A stretch of DNA of 64,000 bases from a phage: the NCBI GenBank assembly GCA_021469345.1, contig GCA_021469345.1_3049.1; one strand, 5' to 3'. The stretch's first letter is position 1. Each line of letters begins with the position of its first letter. This document shows, piece by piece, positions 1,294-61,990 of this stretch. Both the position numbers and the translations under genes were made by a program. A model generated the notes under the pieces. That model was given only the letters and a program-made list of their open reading frames with translations. It was not told the origin of the DNA and made no database searches.

Positions 1294-1752
1294 ATGAAAT
1301 ATATGACTGTTACTGATCTGAACAATGCAGGCGCAACTGTTATTGGTACAATCAAGGGCGGTGAATGGGTTTTTGGAACTCCGCATAAAGATATTTTATC
1401 TAAACCTGGATTTTACTTTTTAGTAAGTAAATTAGATGGTCGTCCATTTAGTAATCCATGCGTGTCTGCACGATTTTATGTAGGCAATCAGCGTTCTAAG
1501 CAAGGATTCAGCGCAGTTCTAAGTCATATTCGTCAACGCCGGTCTCAGCTTGCGCGTACTATTGCAAATAACAATGTTCCATACACAGTATTTTATCTGC
1601 CTGCTTCTAAGATGAAACCTCTGACGACTGGATTTGGAAAAGGACAGTTAGCTTTGGCGTTTACTCGTAATCATCATTCTGAGTATCAAACGCTTGAAGA
1701 AATGAATCGTATGTTGGCTGATAACTTTAAATTTGTTTTGCAGGCATATTAA
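1294..1752 (+). CDS. ndd: Ndd nucleoid disruption protein
   Basis: 152 aa; sequence and position next to stp/ac match my recollection of T4 Ndd (151 aa). Confidence 0.75.
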
Positions 1753-1832
1753 TGAGTAATTTCCACAATGAACACGTGATGCAGTTCTATCGTAACAATC
1801 TTAAAACCAAAGGCGTCTTCGGACGCCAGTGA
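1752..1832 (+). CDS. stp: Stp peptide (26 aa), activator of host PrrC anticodon nuclease
   Basis: Manual translation [26 protein letters not shown]; ATGA overlap with ndd stop. Confidence 0.8.
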
Positions 1833-1839
1833 GGAAAAT

Positions 1840-1998
1840 ATGAATATCGCAAAATTATTAGGAGTTATTTCATTTATTTGTTGGATAGTAGCATGTGTTT
1901 TAACTATCTGTATCGATGCTAGCAGTGTGTTTTCGCAGGCTTTAGCTCAGGGTATGTGTGCATATTTAACATTTGTGTTGTTATCTACTAATGATTAA
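1840..1998 (+). CDS. ac: Ac (acriflavine sensitivity) small membrane protein, 52 aa
   Basis: Manual translation MNIAKLLGVISFICWIVACVL...; position between stp and gene 52. Confidence 0.65.
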   Translation: MNIAKLLGVISFICWIVACVLTICIDASSVFSQALAQGMCAYLTFVLLSTND

Positions 1999-2131
1999 GA
2001 AAATCTTGGGCTATTCATTAGCCCTTGCTACTTTATTGGTAGCATTATATTACGGAATAATGTTCGGATTAATTCAAGTCGTGCTTTTCATTTCTGATGT
2101 TATTATGGCACTACATTCACTAGTATGGTAA
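1991..2131 (+). CDS. small membrane ORF (46 aa), positional equivalent of T4 52.1
   Basis: Manual translation MIKKILGYSLALATLLVALYYG...; ends 4 nt before gene 52. Confidence 0.4.
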   Translation: MIKKILGYSLALATLLVALYYGIMFGLIQVVLFISDVIMALHSLVW

Positions 2132-2135
2132 ATTT

Positions 2136-3464
2136 ATGCAACTGAATAATCGCGATTTAAAAAGTATCATTGATAATGAAGCATTGGCTTATGCTATGTA
2201 CACGGTTGAAAATCGTGCTATTCCAAATATGATTGATGGATTTAAGCCAGTTCAACGATTTGTTATTGCTCGAGCTCTTGATTTGGCACGAGGAAATAAA
2301 GATAAGTTTCACAAACTCGCTTCTATCGCAGGTGGTGTAGCGGACCTTGGATATCATCATGGTGAAAAATCTGCGCAAGACGCAGGTGCTTTGATGGCTA
2401 ACACTTGGAATAATAACTTTCCTCTGTTAGATGGTCAAGGAAACTTCGGTTCTCGTACTGTCCAAAAAGCAGCAGCGAGTCGTTATATTTTTGCTCGTGT
2501 AAGTAAAAATTTCTATAACGTATATAAAGATACTGAGTATGCTCCGGTACATCAAGATAAAGAACATATTCCGCCTGCTTTCTATTTGCCTATTATTCCT
2601 ACTGTTCTTCTTAATGGCGTTTCCGGTATTGCAACTGGTTATGCAACTTACATTCTTCCTCATAGTGTTTCTTCTGTCAAGAAAGCTGTACTGCAAGCTC
2701 TTCAAGGAAAGAAAGTAACTAAACCGAAGGTAGAATTCCCAGAATTTCGTGGTGAAGTCGTTGAGATTGACGGTCAATATGAAATTCGTGGAACGTACAA
2801 GTTTACTTCACGAACTCAAATGAATATCACTGAGATTCCGTATAAGTATGATCGTGAAACTTATGTGAGTAAAATCTTAGACCCGCTTGAAGATAAAGGC
2901 TTCATTACATGGGATGATGCTTGTGGTGAGCATGGCTTTGGCTTTAAAGTTAAATTCCGCAAAGAATACGCTTTGAGTAATAACGAAGAAGAACGCCATG
3001 CAAAAATCATGAAAGACTTCGGGTTGATTGAGCGTCGTTCCCAAAATATTACAGTCATTAATGAGAAAGGAAAGCTGCAAGTTTACGATAACGTAGTTGA
3101 TTTAATTAAAGACTTTGTTGAAGTTCGTAAAACTTATGTCCAAAAACGAATTGATAACAAAATCAAAGAAACTGAATCAGCATTTCGTTTAGCCTTTGCC
3201 AAGGCACATTTCATTAAGAAAGTAATTTCAGGTGAAATTGTTGTACAGGGTAAAACTCGTAAAGAACTGACCGAAGAACTTTCGAAAATCGACATGTATT
3301 CTTCTTATGTTGATAAACTAGTTGGAATGAATATTTTTCATATGACTTCCGACGAAGCAAAGAAACTTGCTGAAGAAGCTAAAGCTAAGAAAGAAGAAAA
3401 CGAATATTGGAAAACTACTGATGTAGTTACCGAATACACCAAAGATTTAGAGGAAATCAAATGA
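2136..3464 (+). CDS. 52: DNA topoisomerase II medium subunit gp52
   Basis: 442 aa; GyrA-like N-terminal region (GFKPVQRF); length equals T4 gp52. Confidence 0.9.
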   Translation: MQLNNRDLKSIIDNEALAYAMYTVENRAIPNMIDGFKPVQRFVIARALDLARGNKDKFHKLASIAGGVADLGYHHGEKSAQDAGALMANTWNNNFPLLDGQGNFGSRTVQKAAASRYIFARVSKNFYNVYKDTEYAPVHQDKEHIPPAFYLPIIPTVLLNGVSGIATGYATYILPHSVSSVKKAVLQALQGKKVTKPKVEFPEFRGEVVEIDGQYEIRGTYKFTSRTQMNITEIPYKYDRETYVSKILDPLEDKGFITWDDACGEHGFGFKVKFRKEYALSNNEEERHAKIMKDFGLIERRSQNITVINEKGKLQVYDNVVDLIKDFVEVRKTYVQKRIDNKIKETESAFRLAFAKAHFIKKVISGEIVVQGKTRKELTEELSKIDMYSSYVDKLVGMNIFHMTSDEAKKLAEEAKAKKEENEYWKTTDVVTEYTKDLEEIK

Positions 3465-3610
3465 GTCCATTCATAGGTATTACAAGCGCTGCATTAGTAT
3501 CTGGTAGCATTTTACTAGCGGGCTTAGGTGTTGTTCCAGCCGTAGCAGGAGGTCTTCTTGCTTTTGGTATTCAGCGTGTTATCATGATAGTTATCACGGT
3601 CATGCAGTAA
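3461..3610 (+). CDS. small membrane protein (49 aa), motA.1 position
   Basis: ATGA overlap with gene 52 stop; hydrophobic; manually translated. Confidence 0.4.
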   Translation: MSPFIGITSAALVSGSILLAGLGVVPAVAGGLLAFGIQRVIMIVITVMQ

Positions 3611-3615
3611 TTTTT

Positions 3616-3640
3616 GGGGAGCTTCGGCTCCCCTTTTTTA
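3616..3640 (+). terminator. rho-independent terminator (GGGGAGC-TTCG-GCTCCCC + T-run)
   Basis: Perfect GC stem with tetraloop followed by T6. Confidence 0.7.
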
Positions 3641-3662
3641 TTTCAAAAATTTTTTTCACAAA

Positions 3663-3702
3663 ACGGTTTACAACCAAAGCATACTGTGGTACTATACAAC
3701 TA
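3663..3702 (+). promoter_or_regulatory. T4-type early promoter (GTTTAC at 3666-3671)
   Basis: Near-identical to the promoter at 20-58. Confidence 0.6.
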
Positions 3703-3736
3703 TCAACTACTGATACAGAATTACGGAGATTAGAAA

Positions 3737-4372
3737 ATGTCTAAAGTAACTTACATCATCAAAGCTTCTAACGATGTTCTGAATGAAAAAACTGCTGCGA
3801 TTTTAATTACCATTGCTAAGAAAGATTTCATTACAGCTGCAGAAGTTCGTGAGGTGCATCCAGATTTAGGTAACGCAGTAGTTAATAGTAATATTGGGGT
3901 ATTGATTAAAAAAGGCCTGGTGGAGAAATCTGGTGATGGATTAATCATTACTGGTGAAGCTCAAGATATTATTTCAAATGCAGCAACTTTATACGCGCAG
4001 GAAAATGCTCCGGAACTGCTGAAAAAACGAGCAACTCGTAAAGCTCGTGAGATTACTTCTGATATGGAAGAAGATAAAGACTTCATGTTAAAACTTTTGG
4101 ATGAAAATGGATTTGTTCTTAAAAAAGTTGAAACTTATCGTAGTAACTATCTTGCTATTTTAGAAAAACGCACTCACGGAATTCGTAATTTTGAAATTAA
4201 CAACAATGGAAATATGCGAATTTTTGGATACAAAATGATGGAACATCATATTCAGAAATTTACTGATATCGGAATGTCATGTAAAATCGCTAAAAACGGT
4301 AATGTGTATCTTGACATTAAACGCTCGGCAGAAAACATTGAAGCTGTAATCGCTGTAGCATCTGAACTGTGA
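3737..4372 (+). CDS. motA: MotA middle-transcription activator
   Basis: 211 aa; length and position between 52 and asiA match T4 MotA. Confidence 0.85.
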   Translation: MSKVTYIIKASNDVLNEKTAAILITIAKKDFITAAEVREVHPDLGNAVVNSNIGVLIKKGLVEKSGDGLIITGEAQDIISNAATLYAQENAPELLKKRATRKAREITSDMEEDKDFMLKLLDENGFVLKKVETYRSNYLAILEKRTHGIRNFEINNNGNMRIFGYKMMEHHIQKFTDIGMSCKIAKNGNVYLDIKRSAENIEAVIAVASEL

Positions 4373-4382
4373 GGAATAAATA

Positions 4383-4712
4383 ATGAACAAGTTAGAAATT
4401 GTTAATGAACTTCGTCGTTGTGCAGAACCTACTCAAGAGGGTTGGGATATTTGGTACCATGGAGCTTATCTTGGAACTATCGTAAAGATTAAGACTGGTA
4501 AATACATGATTATTCGTGAAAGTAAAGATGCTCCAGTAGGTATTCGCAATAATTTTATGGCAGCAATAAGTTCATTTACGGATGCAGCTTACGAAATTTA
4601 CCTTGCCGATTATAAAGAATTCCAGGAATCTCAACCGGTTATTCGTTCAATTGGTGTTAACAAAGCTCAACAGAAAACTTTGTGGCAACGTATTAAAGGG
4701 TGGTTTAAATGA
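4383..4712 (+). CDS. hypothetical protein (109 aa), arn.4 position
   Basis: ORF track; tightly packed between motA and arn. Confidence 0.5.
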
Positions 4713-5170
4713 ACCCATTTATCAATCGTTTAAAAATGTTAAATGTTCCTTTATCTCGTGAAACTCCAGAAAGTCTTGTTGAAAAATTTAAAGCGCATGG
4801 TTATAAATGCACAGAAGAAGATATTCTGAAAGAAGTTCCTGAAATCTGTTGGCAGACTGCGTATTGGGATGAAAACCAAAAGTATCAACGACGAATTGTC
4901 TGCGCAGCCAACCGTTTTAAATTAAAAGATGGACGAACTCTTATTATTCCAGGTGCTCGTCATTATTCTAAAGATATGGCAGAAGTTTTAGATGTAGTTA
5001 AACCTCAATTAGTTACTCAACAAGTTTGTGATGATGACCAAGGGTTTATTGACCAATATAGTAATTATTGGACACGTGAAGAAGCAATGATTATTGCAAC
5101 TTACGCTGGACAAGTACGTATTGAACGTGGTGGTAGTGAAAAAGAACTTTATTCTGAGGACCTTTACTAA
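4709..5170 (+). CDS. hypothetical protein (153 aa)
   Basis: ORF track; ATGA overlap with the upstream ORF. Confidence 0.5.
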
Positions 5171-5466
5171 TGAATATTAAACAGTTTCAAATTGATGGAA
5201 TTATGAATCAAATCCAGGCGCTGGAATATGCTAATAAAATGATGTCAACCAAATGGGGAATTTATGCCAATGAACCGGCATTTCAGTTCTGTAATATGGA
5301 ATTCACTAAAAAGCTCGTAGGAAAAGATTATGTATGTCCATTTAGTTCTCCAGTAAATGGAATGCTAAAACCTGCTTTACGCGATCTTTATATTGCGATG
5401 AACGAAGAAATGATAAAAGAGTTAAAACGTCAACTGAAGGTGATTCAATTTGGCCAGGGAAATTAA
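5170..5466 (+). CDS. hypothetical protein (98 aa)
   Basis: ORF track. Confidence 0.45.
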   Translation: MNIKQFQIDGIMNQIQALEYANKMMSTKWGIYANEPAFQFCNMEFTKKLVGKDYVCPFSSPVNGMLKPALRDLYIAMNEEMIKELKRQLKVIQFGQGN

Positions 5467-5668
5467 TTCAAAATCCGATTATTTTAATTCTCTCAATGAT
5501 AAAGATAAAAATCTAATACGGCATTTTATCGTTGAGATGGGATATACTGATACACGTGATTTAAGAGAACATATATTTGAATGTGGTGTAGCTAAAAAGT
5601 TTTCATTCACATGCAAATGTTTAAGAGAGGTAATTCAGCACTATGAACAATTTAGTCGCAAAACATAA
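5450..5668 (+). CDS. hypothetical protein (72 aa)
   Basis: ORF track. Confidence 0.4.
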   Translation: MAREINSKSDYFNSLNDKDKNLIRHFIVEMGYTDTRDLREHIFECGVAKKFSFTCKCLREVIQHYEQFSRKT

Positions 5669-11894: not shown

Positions 11895-12560
11895 TTAATA
11901 ATAGCCGAAATCTTGAACAGAATCCTTAATTACGATTTGGTCAAATCGCGGAACGTGTGAAGGTTGAGACGCAGGATTCTGCGAGAAAAAATTTGGTGCG
12001 GTTAAGTTTCCTGTCATAGTGTCACCTTTACGGAAAACTCTAGAATCCGCATTTGCCGTAACAGTATTTATTGCTCCATCGACGTAGTCCTTTCTAGTAA
12101 GGTCATTTGCTGCAATTGGCGTCGGCATATCACTTCTTACTTGACCTGCAGCGGATACAACGCCTTTTGTACTAATATCACCATTACGTGTATTGATTAC
12201 TACAGTTCTGGCTGCTGAACCCTGTGATGATTTAAAACCAATACCATACCATGAAACAATATCAATATTTGCTGTAGCAAAAGTAGCTGCATCACCGTTA
12301 CCAGGAAAAATACCACTTTGGTTTGTATTGTTTATAGCATATGGTACTTGAACACCAGCATTAAATGTTACCTTTGATGCATAAGTACCACCATTAGCTT
12401 TAGAAACGAAATCGTTATCAGCAGCTTGTGGTTTATTATATTCTGAATATATTTTAAATGATTTATAGAGTACATCGTCACCGGCCGGATTCAATGGAAA
12501 ATTTCCTTGATGCCAAATGACAGAGCCTCCAGTTGTTGAACCTACTTTTAAATCAGCCAT
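11895..12560 (-). CDS. 36: long tail fibre subunit gp36
   Basis: 221 aa, the same length as T4 gp36; position between 35 and 37. Confidence 0.85.
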
Positions 12561-30464: not shown

Positions 30465-31274
30465 TTGAACTATAGAAAAATTTGGATAGATGCTAACGGA
30501 CCTATACCTAAAGATTCTGATGGAAGAACATACGAAATCCATCATAAAGACGGTAACCGTGAAAATAATGATTTAGATAATTTGATGTGCCTTTCTATAC
30601 AGGAACATTATGATATACATTTAGCTCAAAAAGATTACCAGGCTTGTCATGCTATAAAGCTTAGAATGAAATATTCTCCTGAAGAAATTTCTGAATTAGC
30701 TTCTAAAGCCGCAAAATCTAGAGAAATCCAGATTTTTAATATCCCTGAAGTACGAGCTAAAAACATTGCCTCTATTAAATCTAAGATAGAAAATGGTACA
30801 TTTCATCTTTTAGACGGTGAAATACAGCGTAAATCTAATTTAAATAGAGTTGCATTAGGTATACATAATTTTCAACAAGCTGAGCATATTGCAAAAGTTA
30901 AAGAACGCAATATTGCAGCTATAAAAGAAGGTACTCATGTATTTTGCGGTGGTAAAATGCAGTCAGAAACTCAATCAAAACGGGTAAATGACGGTTCACA
31001 TCATTTCTTGTCAGAAGACCATAAGAAAAGAACATCAGCAAAAACATTAGAAATGGTTAAGAACGGGACCCATCCTGCACAAAAAGAAATCACATGTGAT
31101 TTCTGCGGTCACATTGGTAAAGGTCCTGGATTTTATCTAAAACATAATGACAGATGTAAATTAAATCCAAATAGAATTCAATTGAATTGTCCATATTGTG
31201 ATAAGAAAGATTTATCACCATCAACATATAAACGATGGCACGGCGACAATTGCAAAGCAAGGTTCAACGACTAG
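30465..31274 (+). CDS. I-TevIII-like H-N-H homing endonuclease, full length (269 aa)
   Basis: H-N-H-like YEIHHKDGNRENNDLDNLMCL and C-terminal CDFCGH...CPYCDKK zinc motifs; apparent TTG start after SD AAGAGGA. Confidence 0.75.
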   Translation: MNYRKIWIDANGPIPKDSDGRTYEIHHKDGNRENNDLDNLMCLSIQEHYDIHLAQKDYQACHAIKLRMKYSPEEISELASKAAKSREIQIFNIPEVRAKNIASIKSKIENGTFHLLDGEIQRKSNLNRVALGIHNFQQAEHIAKVKERNIAAIKEGTHVFCGGKMQSETQSKRVNDGSHHFLSEDHKKRTSAKTLEMVKNGTHPAQKEITCDFCGHIGKGPGFYLKHNDRCKLNPNRIQLNCPYCDKKDLSPSTYKRWHGDNCKARFND

Positions 31275-31410
31275 TCTTCGGACGTAGGGTCAAGCGACTC
31301 GAAATGGGGAGAATCCCTCTGGGATTGTGATATAGTCTGGTCTGCATAGTAATATGTAGCAGTTCATAAGAGAACGGGTTGAGAATTAGCGAGCTCAATC
31401 GAACATAACG

Positions 31411-31913
31411 GTACCTTTAACTTCCACAAGAATATGGAAATCATGGAAGGTAATGCCAAGATTATGAAGTTCATTGCACGTGATGAGCAGCTTCACCTTA
31501 AAGGCACCCAATATATTATTCGTCAGCTTCAATCCGGTACTGATGGTGATGAATGGGTTAAAATTGCTCAAGAGTGTGAACAAGAAGCAGTTGATATTTT
31601 CATGGAAGTTAACCGTCAAGAAAAAGATTGGGCAGTTCATTTATTTAAAGATGGTGATGTTCCTGGATTAAATACAAATAGCATGTGGAGCTTTATTGAT
31701 TACTTAACTGTATCTCGTATGAAACAGTGCGGTCTTCCATGCCCAATTACCGATGCTCCGGTTAAACATCCATATCCTTGGATTCGTGAATATCTTAATT
31801 CTGATAATGTTCAATCTGCGCCACAAGAAGTAGAACTGTCATCTTACCTTGTTGCACAGATTGATAATGATGTTGATGATAAAGTTATGATGAGTTTTAA
31901 AAAATATTTTTAA
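31411..31913 (+). CDS. nrdB: ribonucleotide reductase small subunit, exon 2
   Basis: ...MEIMEGNAKIMKFIARDEQLHLKGTQYII...; joined product about 392 aa. Confidence 0.8.
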
Positions 31914-31917
31914 GGAG

Positions 31918-31940
31918 TGGGCCGCAAGGCCCATTTTATT
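31918..31940 (+). terminator. hairpin after nrdB (GGGCC-GCAA-GGCCC + ATTTTATT)
   Basis: GC stem followed by a T-rich tract. Confidence 0.4.
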
Positions 31941-33528
<1,588 letters not shown>

Positions 33529-33531
33529 GCT

Positions 33532-33585
33532 GTTTACAAGTCCCTCGTGTTGTGTTATAGTAGTCTTACTGACATAACATGAGGA
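33532..33585 (+). promoter_or_regulatory. T4-type early promoter, copy A of a 54-bp exact repeat
   Basis: GTTTAC at 33532-33537, TATAGT at 33556-33561; identical to 46740-46793. Confidence 0.6.
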
Positions 33586-33589
33586 CTTT

Positions 33590-34096
33590 ATGATGGATTT
33601 ACAACTTATTACTACTGAAATGGTCGTTGAAGCATACGGTGATACTACAGATGGGATTTCTGTATTCAAAGGAAATCGTCGAGTTGGATATATCACCGAT
33701 CTTAAGAAAGATTTAGCTAAGCAAGTCAAGCGGAAAACGACCATTAAAGAATATCGAAATCGTCGTCTTGAGCAAGCCCGTGATATGCTTCCTGATGCGG
33801 TTGAAGAGATGAAAGTCTTTTTAGAAAATCAGCTTGCGAAATATGATTGTGAAGTATTCATTAATCAGACTCAACCTAATGTTCATATCAATAACTGTAA
33901 ATGCTATATCATCGTTAATCCTTTGACGGGAAAACACCGCCTTGGGATTAGTAATCCAAATCGTAGTGCATCGGATATGGCAGAAGATGTTGAGGCGTGC
34001 TTTAAAATTTCTAAATCTCCGGCTGAACATCATATTTTAATTAACGGTCTTTCTCAAGACGATATTGTAGAGGTTATTAAAACTTTATGCATGTAA
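33590..34096 (+). CDS. alc: Alc (blocks transcription of cytosine-containing DNA)
   Basis: 167-168 aa; position between rnlA and the pseT cluster. Confidence 0.8.
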   Translation: MMDLQLITTEMVVEAYGDTTDGISVFKGNRRVGYITDLKKDLAKQVKRKTTIKEYRNRRLEQARDMLPDAVEEMKVFLENQLAKYDCEVFINQTQPNVHINNCKCYIIVNPLTGKHRLGISNPNRSASDMAEDVEACFKISKSPAEHHILINGLSQDDIVEVIKTLCM

Positions 34097-36508: not shown

Positions 36509-36545
36509 CAGTTTACTTTACGGTAGAGTTGTGATATTATAGCTC
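36507..36545 (+). promoter_or_regulatory. T4-type early promoter (GTTTAC at 36511-36516)
   Basis: Conserved early promoter motif. Confidence 0.5.
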
Positions 36546-36569
36546 TACCAAACAAATGAGGAAAACAAA

Positions 36570-39523: not shown

Positions 39524-39562
39524 AGTTGTTTACAGTATGGTTCCTTTGTGATAGTATTATTT
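39524..39562 (+). promoter_or_regulatory. T4-type early promoter (GTTTAC at 39528-39533)
   Basis: Conserved early promoter motif. Confidence 0.55.
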
Positions 39563-39584
39563 TACACAAACAAAGGAGAATAAA

Positions 39585-39917: not shown

Positions 39918-39955
39918 TTGTTTACTTTGGTACAGGATATGATATTATATACCTG
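39916..39955 (+). promoter_or_regulatory. T4-type early promoter (GTTTAC at 39920-39925)
   Basis: Conserved early promoter motif. Confidence 0.55.
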
Positions 39956-39972
39956 TACCGCAATTAAACATC

Positions 39973-40350
39973 TTGGAGAATAAAATGAACTACATTAACT
40001 TTGAACGTAAATATGTTTCTAATGGTATTGCAGGTTCTATTGATACTATTTGCCTTTGGAAACATCAAAATGGATCAGTATGCGAAATCGATCAGTATAT
40101 GACTCCTAATTACGTTTATATGCGATTTGAAAATGGCATCACGGTTTCAATCACAATGGAAGGTTCCAACTTTAAAATCGCTCTGGATGATGATTTTCGT
40201 CAACGCGATTTAGGGACTCATCCTTGCTGGAATGGTGCTAATCGCAAGCTTTTGGTTAAAACTTGGATTCGTCATATTCTGAGTAACAGAGCTAAACCTA
40301 AGCATCTTGAAGCAATCTTTGATGTAGTTCTTAACGAATTTGATATTTAA
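39973..40350 (+). CDS. hypothetical protein (125 aa)
   Basis: ORF track; SD GGAGAA. Confidence 0.5.
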   Translation: MENKMNYINFERKYVSNGIAGSIDTICLWKHQNGSVCEIDQYMTPNYVYMRFENGITVSITMEGSNFKIALDDDFRQRDLGTHPCWNGANRKLLVKTWIRHILSNRAKPKHLEAIFDVVLNEFDI

Positions 40351-40390: not shown

Positions 40391-40678
40391 ATGTTTATGA
40401 CTACTTATTTTGATACCCGTAAAAATTTCTGTGAAGTGGTTTTCTCAAAGGCACCCAAAGACCTTCCTGCTCATTTGCAACCTACCAGTGAATCGATTAA
40501 AAATTATGTTAATGTAGTCTGCCCTTTAGAGTTCCGTACTGTAAATGGGCGCGATACTTTAGCTATCACTAAACTTAATCGTGAAATTGACATTGATCCT
40601 TCAATTGCGCGTGAAATTAACATTTCTGATATTGGCGGCGGTAATGTTAAATCGCACGGTTTTCAGATGAGGTTCTAA
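40391..40678 (+). CDS. hypothetical protein (95 aa)
   Basis: ATG 40391 after SD GAGGAAAA; the track ORF 40340..40678 is extended through a hairpin. Confidence 0.5.
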   Translation: MFMTTYFDTRKNFCEVVFSKAPKDLPAHLQPTSESIKNYVNVVCPLEFRTVNGRDTLAITKLNREIDIDPSIAREINISDIGGGNVKSHGFQMRF

Positions 40679-44300: not shown

Positions 44301-44308
44301 TATAAATA
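44301..44308 (+). promoter_or_regulatory. late promoter TATAAATA upstream of alt
   Basis: Exact TATAAATA about 20 nt upstream of the alt SD. Confidence 0.5.
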
Positions 44309-44331
44309 GAATAAACACTAGAGAGGTTATG

Positions 44332-46380
44332 ATGGAACTTATTACAGAATTATTTGATGAAGATACTACTCTTCCGATTACAAACTTAAATCCAAAGAAG
44401 AAAATACCACAAATTTTTTCAGTTCATGTTGATGACGCAATTGAACAACCAGGCTTTCGTTTATGTACCTATACATCTGGAGGTGATACTAATCGTGATT
44501 TAAAGATGGGCGATAAAATGATGCATATTGTTCCTTTTACATTAACCGCTAAAGGTTCAATTGCTAAATTGAAAGGTCTTGGTCCAAGCCCAATTAATTA
44601 TATCAATTCGGTTTTTACTGTTGCAATGCAAACAATGCGTCAGTATAAAATTGATGCCTGCATGCTTCGTATTCTTAAGTCTAAAACCGCCGGTCAAGCT
44701 CGACAAATTCAAGTTATTGCTGATAGACTTATCCGTAGTCGTTCAGGTGGCAGATACGTCCTTCTTAAGGAACTCTGGGATTATGATAAAAAGTATGCAT
44801 ATATTCTTATACATCGCAAAAATGTATCACTAGAAGACATTCCAGGGGTTCCGGAAATTAGTACCGAGCTCTTTACTAAAGTTGAATCGAAGGTCGGTGA
44901 TGTTTATATCAATAAAGATACTGGAGCTCAAGTAACTAAAAATGAGGCAATTGCAGCATCTATTGCACAAGAAAATGATAAACGTTCTGACCAAGCTGTA
45001 ATCGTTAAAGTTAAAATTTCCCGTAGAGCAATTGCACAAAGTCAGTCATTGGAATCTTCTAGATTTGAAACACCGATGTTTCAAAAATTTGAGGCTTCAG
45101 CGGCAGAATTAAATAAACCAGCGGACGCGCCTTTAATTTCTGATTCTAATGAATTAACGGTAATTTCTACTTCAGGATTTGCACTAGAGAATGCTCTTAG
45201 CAGTGTTACAGCTGGGATGGCATTCAGAGAAGCTTCTATAATTCCTGAAGATAAAGAATCCATTATTAATGCAGAAATAAAAAATAAAGCTTTAGAAAAA
45301 TTACGAAAAGAATCTATTACTTCAATAAAAACTTTAGAAACTATTGCTTCTATCGTCGATGATACTTTAGAAAAATATAAAGGTGCTTGGTTTGAAAGAA
45401 ATATTAACAAACATTCGCATTTAAATCAAGATGCTGCAAATGAGTTAGTACAAAATTCTTGGAATGCAATAAAAACAAAGATTATTCGAAGAGAATTACG
45501 TGGATATGCTCTTACCGCTGGATGGTCATTACATCCTATAGTCGAAAATAAAGATTCATCTAAATACACACCAGCGCAAAAACGCGGAATTCGTGAATAT
45601 GTAGGTTCAGGATATGTAGACATGAATAATGCTCTTTTGGGATTATATAATCCAGATGAGCGTACAAGTATTTTAACAGCATCTGAAATAGAACAAGCCA
45701 TTGATAATTTAGATTCAGCCTTTAAAAATGGTGAACGATTACCAAAAGGTATTACTTTGTATCGTTCACAACGAATGTTACCTTCAATATATGAAGCAAT
45801 GGTAAAAAATCGAGTTTTTTATTTTAGAAACTTTGTGTCAACATCATTATATCCAAATATTTTTGGTACTTGGATGACTGATTCATCTATAGGTGTTTTA
45901 CCAGACGAAAAGCGTCTAAGTGTTTCTATTGATAAAACTGATGAAGGACTAGTAAATTCTAGCGATAATTTAGTTGGAATTGGATGGGTTATTACTGGGG
46001 CTGATAAGGTCAATGTTGTTTTACCCGGTGGAAGTTTAGCGCCTTCAAATGAAATGGAAGTCATTTTGCCACGTGGATTAATGGTCAAAGTTAATAAAAT
46101 AACCGATGCATCTTACAACGATGGAACAGTTAGAACTAACAACAAGCTTATTCAAGCTGAAGTTATGACCACAGAAGAACTCACCGAATCGGTAATCTAT
46201 GACGGAGACCATTTAATGGAAACTGGTGAATTGGTTACAATGACAGGTGATATAGAAGACAGAGTTGACTTTGCATCATTTGTTTCATCAAATGTTAAAC
46301 AGAAAGTAGAATCATCTCTTGGAATTATTGCGTCTTGCATAGATATTGCAAACATGCCTTACAAGTTCGTTCAAGGATAA
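44332..46380 (+). CDS. alt: Alt ADP-ribosyltransferase (packaged; modifies host RNA polymerase)
   Basis: 682 aa from ATG 44332; MELITELFDEDTTLPITNLNPKKK... matches T4 Alt. Confidence 0.9.
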   Translation: MELITELFDEDTTLPITNLNPKKKIPQIFSVHVDDAIEQPGFRLCTYTSGGDTNRDLKMGDKMMHIVPFTLTAKGSIAKLKGLGPSPINYINSVFTVAMQTMRQYKIDACMLRILKSKTAGQARQIQVIADRLIRSRSGGRYVLLKELWDYDKKYAYILIHRKNVSLEDIPGVPEISTELFTKVESKVGDVYINKDTGAQVTKNEAIAASIAQENDKRSDQAVIVKVKISRRAIAQSQSLESSRFETPMFQKFEASAAELNKPADAPLISDSNELTVISTSGFALENALSSVTAGMAFREASIIPEDKESIINAEIKNKALEKLRKESITSIKTLETIASIVDDTLEKYKGAWFERNINKHSHLNQDAANELVQNSWNAIKTKIIRRELRGYALTAGWSLHPIVENKDSSKYTPAQKRGIREYVGSGYVDMNNALLGLYNPDERTSILTASEIEQAIDNLDSAFKNGERLPKGITLYRSQRMLPSIYEAMVKNRVFYFRNFVSTSLYPNIFGTWMTDSSIGVLPDEKRLSVSIDKTDEGLVNSSDNLVGIGWVITGADKVNVVLPGGSLAPSNEMEVILPRGLMVKVNKITDASYNDGTVRTNNKLIQAEVMTTEELTESVIYDGDHLMETGELVTMTGDIEDRVDFASFVSSNVKQKVESSLGIIASCIDIANMPYKFVQG

Positions 46381-46382
46381 AT

Positions 46383-46739
46383 CATGGAACTTATTACATA
46401 ATTATTTGACGGCGCTTCGGCGCCGGTTGTTAACTTAAATCCTAAGCATAAAATACCACAAATTTTTGCTATTCAAGCCGGCGAAGAAAGCGTGCTTCCT
46501 GGATTTAGATTTTGTACATACACCTCTGGCGGTGATACAGATAAAACGTTAAACCAGGCGACAAAATGATGCATATCGTAATGATAGGTGTTAATGAGAA
46601 ACTATCATTAGTTAAGCTTAAAAACTTGGGTGGAAATCCAATTGGTGTCATTAATGCTGTTTTGATACTGCTCTTCAAACAATGAAACAGTATAAAATCG
46701 ACGCATGCCTATTACGCGTACTAAAAAGTTCAAAATGTG
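46383..46739 (+). pseudogene. decayed partial duplicate of the alt 5' region
   Basis: ATGGAACTTATTACATAA (MELIT-stop), then LFDGASAPVVNLNPKHKIPQIF...FCTYTSGGDT..., frameshifts, ...QYKIDACLLRVLKS; parallels the Alt N-terminus. Confidence 0.65.
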
Positions 46740-46793
46740 GTTTACAAGTCCCTCGTGTTGTGTTATAGTAGTCTTACTGACATAACATGAGGA
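46740..46793 (+). promoter_or_regulatory. T4-type early promoter, copy B of the 54-bp exact repeat
   Basis: Identical to 33532-33585. Confidence 0.6.
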
Positions 46794-46800
46794 ACACAAA

Positions 46801-47091
46801 ATGAAATCTTCTTTACGCTTTTTAGGTCAAGAACTTGTAGTTGAAGGCGTTATTCCTGCTGATAACGCTTTTAATGAAGCAGTTTATGATGAATTTATCA
46901 AAATTTTCGGAACAGATAAAAAGTTTGGAATTTTTCCTTCTGAAAATTTTTCAAAGCCAGAACAGACTGAAAGTATTTTTCAGGGTGTAGTAACAGGTAA
47001 ATTTGAGTCAGAAGCTCCGGTAAAAATTGAAGTTTATATTGAAGACAGTTTAGTTGCTTCAGTTGCTGCTTTTATTTCATTCCGTAAATAA
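46801..47091 (+). CDS. hypothetical protein (96 aa)
   Basis: ORF track; SD GAGGAACA. Confidence 0.5.
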   Translation: MKSSLRFLGQELVVEGVIPADNAFNEAVYDEFIKIFGTDKKFGIFPSENFSKPEQTESIFQGVVTGKFESEAPVKIEVYIEDSLVASVAAFISFRK

Positions 47092-47093
47092 AA

Positions 47094-47120
47094 ACATGGG
47101 GACCGAAAGGTCCCCATTGT
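47094..47120. terminator. bidirectional terminator hairpin (GGGGACC-GAAA-GGTCCCC) between convergent genes
   Basis: Perfect GC stem flanked by A-rich and T-rich tracts. Confidence 0.6.
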
Positions 47121-60608: not shown

Positions 60609-60634
60609 AAAAGGGACCGAAAGGTCCCTTTGTT
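60609..60634. terminator. bidirectional terminator (AGGGACC-GAAA-GGTCCCT) between rnlB and gene 24
   Basis: Perfect stem flanked by A-run and T-run. Confidence 0.65.
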
Positions 60635-61961: not shown

Positions 61962-61990
61962 ACAACTAAAGGGACCCGAAGGTCCCTTAA
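61962..61990 (-). terminator. terminator after gene 23 (GC stem + T-rich on the - strand)
   Basis: AGGGACC-TTCG-GGTCCCT followed by a T-rich tract on the - strand. Confidence 0.55.

Follow-up and report, generated by a model that had tools for sequence, protein, structure and literature searches.

Two genes of a T4-like phage that lie 13 kb apart are preceded by the same 54 bp, and the question is what this sequence does there and why its two copies are identical. The sequence, GTTTACAAGTCCCTCGTGTTGTGTTATAGTAGTCTTACTGACATAACATGAGGA, lies in a 64-kb stretch of phage DNA, referred to below as the window. An earlier note, made from the letters of the window alone, took the two copies for early promoters related by a recent cassette transfer or recombination, and regarded the pair as a substrate for deleting the intervening 13 kb. 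Here we describe the repeat, its anatomy and its distribution among relatives, and use these data to weigh this and other readings.

Results

Two exact copies in front of alc and alt.-3

The 54-mer occurs exactly twice in the 64-kb window, both times on the + strand, at 33532-33585 and 46740-46793. The copies form a direct repeat (repeat family D5) in which 54 of 54 bases match, and the identity has sharp limits at both ends of each copy. Copy 1, before alc, is flanked by ...AAGCT and CTTTATG; copy 2, before the ORF at 46801, is flanked by ...ATGTG and ACACAAAATG. The genes and elements around them are as follows:

32404-33528, + strand: rnlA (gene 63, RNA ligase 1 / tail-fibre attachment), from the T4 annotation and the ORF 32368-33528; the start at 32404 is taken from the length of the T4 CDS
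33532-33585, + strand: copy 1 of the cassette, at alc, from exact repeat, promoter scan and fold; -35 box TTTACA at 33533-33538, TG-extended -10 box TATAGT at 33556-33561, hairpin at 33543-33584, Shine-Dalgarno sequence (SD) GAGG at 33581-33584; predicted transcription start near A33568, from the -10 spacing
33590-34096, + strand: alc (inhibitor of host transcription; Pfam ALC, 2.6e-92), with copy 1 as its predicted promoter; the T4 annotation begins alc at the second ATG, at 33593
44329-46380, + strand: alt (RNA polymerase ADP-ribosyltransferase; ORF, ADPrib_exo_Tox), preceded at 44301 by the late-promoter-like motif TATAAATA
46381-46729, + strand: decayed remnant of a second, tandem alt paralogue (T4 alt.-1/alt.-2), from repeats of 72-93% spaced 2049-2052 nt (families D3 and D12) and from the T4 notes
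46721-46729, + strand: junction of a 1.69-kb deletion, with a single surviving 9-bp CTAAAAAGT, from breakpoint alignment
46740-46793, + strand: copy 2 of the cassette, at alt.-3, from exact repeat, promoter scan and fold; -35 box at 46741-46746, -10 box at 46764-46769, hairpin at 46751-46792, SD at 46789-46792; predicted start near A46776
46801-47091, + strand: alt.-3 (96 aa; DUF5498, 1.4e-64), with copy 2 as its predicted promoter
47096-47117, no strand assigned: bidirectional terminator-like hairpin between alt.-3 and the convergent gene 54 (terminator scan; family D4), closing the copy 2 unit

The exact identity at a distance of 13 kb, which the earlier note had reported, was confirmed, with the two copies being the only matches in the window at 3 or fewer mismatches. 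Its placement of the copies upstream of alc and of ORF 46801 was likewise correct, the latter being alt.-3, a DUF5498 gene. In T4 alt.-3 is non-essential, and mutants with a C-terminal extension of its product let the phage escape the CmdTAC defence system (PMC11618068).

The genes upstream of both copies are co-directional with them, and the scan found no terminator-like site in between. On the alc side, rnlA ends 3 nt before copy 1, and no terminator-like site was found between rnlA and alc; rnlA is the likely source of a read-through RNA that would hold the entire copy 1 hairpin. The hairpin GGGACC(G)AAAGGTCCC that lies downstream of alt.-3 (family D4) exists in three copies, at 47096-47117, 60613-60628 and 61971-61986. 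A weak repeat (D11) links the N-terminus of alt.-3 with the ORF at 40678; this seems to be a trivial likeness of N-termini.

For comparison with other early promoters, all TTTAC-N17-19-TANNNT sites in the window were listed, which gave 120 pairs on the + strand. After the 54-mer pair, the most similar of these pairs shares 39 of 54 positions, and the median is 21 of 54. As had been claimed, therefore, the other early promoters have only the core motif in common. In addition, no match to the 54-mer arose in 100 dinucleotide-preserving shuffles. The 54-bp feature is real and non-random.

A promoter, a hairpin and a Shine-Dalgarno sequence in 54 bp

In both copies, the 54 bp extend exactly from the -35 box to the SD. 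The promoter scan gives TTTACA-17-TG-TATAGT for each (10/12, with a 17-bp spacer and TG present), a strong predicted early promoter of the sigma-70 type. At both loci the -35 box is preceded by A/T-rich DNA, whose sequence is not common to the two. Cassette positions 12-31 pair with 36-53, forming an 18-bp helix across the spacer, the -10 box and the leader. The energy of this hairpin is -22 kcal/mol (z -5.39; 0 of 200 shuffles equally stable), or -27.3 and -24.4 kcal/mol when local flanks are included. The 5' arm (CCUCGUGUUGUGUU...) begins five bases past the -35 hexamer, and the -10 box is split, with one part in this arm and another in an internal bulge. At the end of the 3' arm, the SD GAGG (G50-G53) pairs with CCUC (C12-C15). 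The AUG sits 4-8 nt outside the helix in both copies, with GAGGA 4-7 nt ahead of the ATG.

A sigma-70 transcript is predicted to begin about 7 nt past the -10 box, i.e., near cassette position 37 and beyond the 5' arm. Thus, if this promoter is active and its start is where we infer it to be, its RNA would contain no 5' arm; folding from the predicted starts leaves such RNA with almost no structure (-1.8 and -2.2 kcal/mol, z about -0.3).

An intrinsic (rho-independent) terminator was considered for the hairpin and rejected. No U-tract follows the helix at either copy, the tails being CUUUAUG and ACACAAA, and the intrinsic-terminator scan was negative at both. Nor was an Rfam family found for the element: the best hit was MIR8643 at chance level (16.8 bits, E 0.78; gathering score 135). 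RegB cuts the motif GGAG or GGAU (PMC3014915), and this motif is absent from the cassette SD, GAGGA.

Other early promoters of the window also carry hairpins. Two of them share the design of the cassette, in that an anti-SD arm in the -35/-10 spacer pairs with the SD downstream: those at 529-582 (arms GTTCCTC...GAGGAAC, -19.6 kcal/mol, z -4.8) and at 39528-39581 (arms TTCCTTTG...CAAAGGAG, -12.1 kcal/mol, z -2.6). SD-sequestering early-promoter cassettes may therefore recur as a class in T4-like genomes. At 36511-36564 (GGTAGAG...CTCTACC) and 39920-39973 (GGTACAGG...CCTGTACC), the early-promoter hairpin encloses the -10 box and not the SD, which is similar to promoter-early stem-loops (PeSLs, see below).

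The pair is found throughout Tequatrovirus

The window belongs to Tequatrovirus; both regions are 95-99% identical to about 500 genomes of this genus. Identity to T4 is about 97.5%, the + strand of the window being the minus strand of T4. T4 carries both copies, with 0 mismatches before alc and 1 (G40A) before alt.-3. A blastn search with the 54-mer matched 999 places in 500 Tequatrovirus records, that is, about two per genome, and in every genome read the copies reside at the same two loci, namely between rnlA and alc and between the alt region and alt.-3. The proposed recent transfer of a promoter cassette is not borne out by this distribution. Because T4 has the pair and the 54-mer is genus-wide, the pair predates the phage of the window; it is probably ancestral to Tequatrovirus, having arisen before the radiation of the genus.

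A separate deletion next to copy 2

Most Tequatroviruses have two full-length alt paralogues in tandem, of about 2094 and 2058 nt (1498-5652 of the region in T6). In T6, PP01, KIT03, UFV10, SA20RB, wV7 and others, the full-length 2058-nt paralogue is followed by the same cassette and alt.-3. In T4 and in the window, only about 350 nt of this second paralogue are kept, a truncated layout that about 91 of 528 records show in one piece. Decay of the remnant has gone further in the window than in T4: its first ATG has become ATC, and an early stop follows. The T4 GenBank note derives alt.-1/alt.-2 from an old duplication of the beginning of alt; contrary to this note, it is evident from the relatives that the whole gene was duplicated and that a deletion followed.

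The 1.69-kb deletion is apparent when the window is aligned with T6, ES12 and BCH953P2. Both breakpoints in T6 carry the 9-mer CTAAAAAGT, the left-hand copy having one mismatch in ES12 and BCH953P2, and the single 9-mer that survives at 46721-46729 ends 10 nt upstream of the cassette and its -35 box. The statement that copy 2 lies right where the alt-like pseudogene is truncated is therefore approximately correct, the junction being 10-19 nt upstream of the repeat. Truncation by the cassette itself was rejected, because the deletion occurred between 9-bp repeats outside of it; having its own repeats at both breakpoints, the truncation is a separate microhomology deletion beside the cassette.

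We also searched for the products of recombination between the two copies. Formally, the repeat could serve as the substrate for a 13-kb deletion as proposed. Nevertheless, 0 of 500 genomes have the corresponding junctions: no phage record covers at least 80% of a chimeric query for the deletion (end of rnlA, cassette, alt.-3), and none covers at least 80% of the reciprocal query (alt remnant, cassette, alc). In relatives such as PP01, the interval comprises alc, pseT.3 to pseT, cd and its neighbors, 31, rIII, 30.9 to 30, alt.1, and alt. Two of these genes, 30 (DNA ligase) and 31 (co-chaperonin), are essential in T4. As with the mini-circles of PeSLs, reciprocal exchange between the copies may take place transiently, but it leaves no viable sequenced phage.

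Variation within and between the two loci

To compare the two copies across relatives, we used 19 genomes from GenBank, IMG/VR and metagenome contigs, which were hand-picked for spread and are phylogenetically related. Cassette scans of IMG/VR and of the metagenome contigs gave 8 and 11 loci, respectively, adding six usable pairs or contig pairs. In these 19 genomes, the copies within a genome differ at 0 to 5 positions, with no difference in the window, one IMG contig, PP01, UFV10 and BCH953P2, and five differences in T6, SA20RB and LF73P3. The consensus sequences of the alc and alt.-3 copies are identical; that is, there is no fixed difference between the loci. The mean distance between paralogues of different genomes, 2.40, is similar to the diversity within each locus, 1.71 and 2.88. 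Within genomes the copies are slightly more alike, with a mean of 2.05 versus 2.40 between genomes and a permutation p of about 0.04 in this hand-picked, related sample.

The two loci also share variants. Among the 19 related genomes, 6 of 9 variants at the alc locus are also found at alt.-3 (hypergeometric p 1e-5; 4e-4 if only transitions are allowed). The linked changes G29A+G32A are carried by both copies in PP01 and the UFV phages; at least five other phages and one metagenome contig have this haplotype at alt.-3 only, and G28 and KMB40 have it at alc. Furthermore, per-site diversity among orthologues is 3.2% and 4.9% in the cassettes versus 0.3-3.0% in their flanks. Because the diversity of the cassettes is not below that of the flanks, constraint alone does not explain the likeness of the paralogues.

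A comparable pair exists in Jiaodavirus. In phage W7-3, a second promoter (33826-33879 of its region) lies 13.85 kb downstream of alc, before a 92-aa ORF between alt and gene 54. This promoter is 83% identical to the alc cassette of the same phage and 68-71% identical to the Tequatrovirus cassettes; from the -10 box to the SD, 30 of 33 bases match its own alc cassette. The SD is not sequestered at this second promoter, since the 5' arm differs. Pfam does not assign the 92-aa ORF to DUF5498, and its similarity to Alt.-3 is weak (E 0.003), so we refer to it as syntenic with alt.-3 and not as homologous.

Taken together, these patterns suggest that the alc and alt.-3 copies exchange sequence occasionally. 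They favor a combination of selection and occasional ectopic conversion between the loci over selection alone, and part of the shared polymorphism could reflect transitions that arose more than once at the same unconstrained positions. Recombination between the copies thus gains partial support in the form of gene conversion, suggested by the shared polymorphisms, and none in the form of the 13-kb deletion or its reciprocal product, whose junctions are absent from the 500 genomes.

The hairpin design is conserved in other genera

The rnlA-alc spacer was read in five other genera; four of them, and one further Jiaodavirus, were folded sequence by sequence. The spacer arms are CTCCATTTGGTTG / CAACCAAATGGAG in Karamvirus RZH (z -5.64), TCCTCATCAG / CTGATGAGGA in Jiaodavirus KP182 and W7-3 (z -3.21 and -5.75), and TCTCCTCAT / ATGAGGAGA in Dhakavirus KIT01 (z -4.52). 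In the alc promoters of these three genera, the order of elements is the -35 box, the anti-SD arm, the -10 box and the arm that holds the SD, and the arms differ in sequence yet remain mutually complementary. Because this layout is kept in three other genera with different complementary arms, the helix, and specifically its pairing with the SD, appears to be under selection; the cross-genus layout is the strongest evidence for this. RNAalifold gave no information on a MAFFT alignment across genera, in which the arms of different genera do not line up. There are also exceptions, so that the anti-SD design is common and not universal: RB69 (Mosigvirus) has an early-type promoter before alc with no SD-sequestering helix (z -0.20), and the Gaprivervirus rnlA-alc spacer looks different.

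Within Tequatrovirus, 39 of 54 columns are invariant in 19 distinct cassette variants. Pairing is retained in 97.7% of helix pair cells, and most changes preserve it (GU to AU or the reverse, or CG to UG). Covariation within the genus is not significant, in that 128 of 500 shuffles reach the observed value, since variation is too low. Two variants illustrate how the helix is altered. In the alt.-3 copy of vB_ECOLIGBLB0003, the double change C15T+G50A replaces a C-G pair by U-A, turning the SD from GAGG into AAGG. In the T6-type alt.-3 haplotype (C11T, C15T, G16A), the helix is longer by virtue of a downstream flank that is specific to alt.-3 (-24.1 kcal/mol).

Related cassettes were also seen elsewhere. 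Upstream of regB, phages from other groups, for example ST0, LF82-8, mar005P1 and the Edwardsiella phages PEi20 and PEi26, have cassettes that are 82-86% similar to the Dhakavirus or Karamvirus alc cassette; one cassette family thus fronts different early genes in different genera. In Dhakavirus CLBP2, an early promoter at 11985-12042, before an ORF of the frd.3 family (Pfam Phage_FRD3), has its own hairpin enclosing the -10 box, and shares 22 of 24 nt with the -10-to-SD segment of the alc cassette of that phage.

Discussion

A cassette that would gate translation

The reading that we favor, at a probability of roughly 70%, is that the repeat represents two copies of a composite cassette of the PeSL type, in which an early promoter is combined with an SD-sequestering hairpin, and that this pair is ancestral and its members are alike through selection and probable conversion. 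According to this reading, RNA that reads through from co-directional rnlA, or from alt and its paralogue, would contain both arms of the hairpin. In such RNA a helix of -22 to -27 kcal/mol would sequester the SD and keep alc and alt.-3 untranslated; read-through transcription might also be attenuated at the hairpin. By contrast, RNA begun at the cassette promoter would start inside the hairpin, without the 5' arm, and would be freely translated. In this way, expression of alc and alt.-3 would be tied to the brief period in which early promoters fire. The source and timing of the read-through RNA at alc are assumptions of this model; a search of 31000-34000 for a late-promoter motif upstream of rnlA was negative. 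We infer promoter activity, the start site, such translational gating, and conversion at the cassettes; the anatomy, the distribution over the genus, the recurrence of the design in other genera and the shared polymorphism are observed. Selection on the promoter, the helix and the SD, probably together with occasional ectopic gene conversion across 13-15 kb, would keep the copies alike, and the exact identity in the window would be one state of this process.

Alternative explanations

The simplest alternative is that the identity is a coincidence, or just the consensus of T4 early promoters. That consensus is indeed extended, consisting of GTTTAC and then TGTGGTACTAT (repeat families D1 and D2), but with no match among the shuffles and no other promoter pair in the window above 39 of 54, this explanation is already refuted and we give it practically no weight. 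More appealing at first sight is a recent transfer in this phage lineage, whereby a single event both truncated the alt paralogue and placed a copy of the alc cassette before alt.-3, or of the alt.-3 cassette before alc. The copies are, after all, identical and sharply bounded here, copy 2 is only 10 nt from the truncation junction, and in all truncated-type genomes read the alt.-3 copy equals the reference or is one base off. However, T4 and every relative read have both copies at the same loci (999 places in 500 records); the genomes with a full-length alt paralogue have the cassette at the same place, where in BCH953P2, ES12 and IMG 2938479101 it differs from the alc copy at 0-1 positions; and the truncation occurred at a 9-bp microhomology of its own, outside the cassette. 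A recent transfer is thus largely refuted by these comparisons, and we consider it very improbable.

The remaining two alternatives deserve more consideration. One is that selection suffices: after a single ancient duplication nearly every base would be constrained, there would be no exchange, and the shared variants would be recurrent mutations at the few free sites. Helix, -35 box, -10 box and SD do together span most of the 54 nt; the 39 invariant columns among 19 distinct variants point the same way, as does the conservation of the design across genera, and most of the shared variants are transitions that keep pairing or are sited in the bulge or loop. However, orthologous cassettes are at least as diverse as the coding DNA that flanks them, the linked G29A+G32A changes occur at both loci, the overlap of 6 in 9 variants exceeds expectation even with transitions only (p 4e-4), and the Jiaodavirus paralogues are closer to each other than to the Tequatrovirus cassettes. 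We therefore regard selection without exchange as unlikely. The other alternative concerns function, namely that the hairpin mainly stops or attenuates transcription from upstream, or protects the 3' ends of rnlA and alt mRNA, the pairing of the SD being incidental. The stem-loops of PeSLs in RB49/phi1 lowered lacZ read-through to an extent similar to that of the strong rrnB T1 terminator (PMC2839356), and the annotators of SA20RB labelled the alt.-3 copy a rho-independent terminator. Yet neither copy has a U-tract or is called terminator-like by the scan, and across four genera, for all the differences in arm sequence, the SD is invariably part of the 3' arm and the -35 box is invariably followed by the 5' arm. 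This constant placement fits sequestration of the SD and not mere termination, and a hairpin that serves chiefly as an attenuator or stabilizer seems to us improbable to much the same degree as selection without exchange. Sequestration of the SD and attenuation are not mutually exclusive.

Significance

The tempting interpretation of the pair as a fresh rearrangement is hereby corrected, its identity being a feature of the genus, T4 included. The overall importance of the finding is modest. The alc/alt.-3 pair is an instance of a known regulatory kind, carried by T4 itself, and the current understanding of T4 regulation is unchanged by it. It does provide a concrete case of two linked ideas about T4, namely that early promoters, hairpins and SDs form composite cassettes, and that such cassettes exchange sequence. 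Worth keeping are the anti-SD design that recurs at alc across genera and the indications that two copies of 54 bp, separated by 13-15 kb, evolve in concert. The conserved pairing between the SD and the start of the spacer, directly behind the -35 box, suggests that Alc, which shuts off host transcription, and Alt.-3 are translated only in the period of early-promoter activity. Since variants common to the two copies occur across about 500 sequenced relatives, the pair could also serve as a natural reporter of short-homology gene conversion in T4-like phages.

Comparison with known systems

PeSLs are cassettes of T4-type phages, including the T4 relative PST (Arbiol et al. 2010, PMC2839356; Comeau et al. 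2014, PMC4122927). In these cassettes, A/T-rich DNA is followed by a sigma-70-like early promoter (TTTACW-N17-TAYWAT in T4/PST), a stem-loop that overlaps it, and the SD and start codon of a small early gene (PMC2839356, PMC4122927). The role first proposed for them was transcription attenuation or protection of mRNA 3' ends, and attenuation was demonstrated in RB49/phi1 (PMC2839356). The alc and alt.-3 cassettes have all of these parts, i.e., the A/T-rich upstream DNA, the promoter, the stem-loop, and the SD and start codon; they are also repeated in the genome, and PeSLs have been proposed as recombination substrates. However, the alc/alt.-3 copies are 100% identical over the whole element, and they lie 13 kb apart around essential genes instead of flanking a dispensable ORF. 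Neither do they act as recombination end points for insertions, deletions or replacements, as far as the 500 genomes tell: no indel or exchange bounded by the copies is found among them, the junctions are absent from the 500 records, and the 1.69-kb deletion near copy 2 used its own 9-bp microhomology and ends 10 nt outside. Finally, the helix specifically pairs the SD, which is not stressed in the PeSL papers.

The relationship between the two copies resembles concerted evolution by ectopic gene conversion, in that there are no fixed differences, polymorphisms and haplotypes are shared, and paralogues within a lineage are closer than orthologues between lineages. The difference is that the tract is only 54 bp long and that the evidence is population-genetic and modest.

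The proposed mode of action is closest to that of T4 e, soc, 49 and I-TevI, in which a long read-through RNA hides the SD in a helix while the RNA from an inner late promoter is translated (PMC3014915). As in these genes, the SD of the cassette is in the 3' arm of a stable helix, with the promoter in or near the DNA of the 5' arm. Their inner promoter, however, is late (TATAAATA) and their gating is late, whereas that of alc and alt.-3 is an early sigma-70 promoter, so that gating would fall in the first minutes of infection. By analogy, the alc/alt.-3 element would work like this family and yet stand outside its late-gated set. A bolder version of our reading, to which we accord somewhat less than an even chance, is that ectopic conversion between alc and alt.-3 on 54 bp across 13-15 kb is recurrent, and that a conserved anti-SD module of the Tevenvirinae limits translation of immediate-early takeover genes to RNA from their own early promoters. 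If this is true, the module would be an early counterpart, in mirror image, of the late gating known from gene e.
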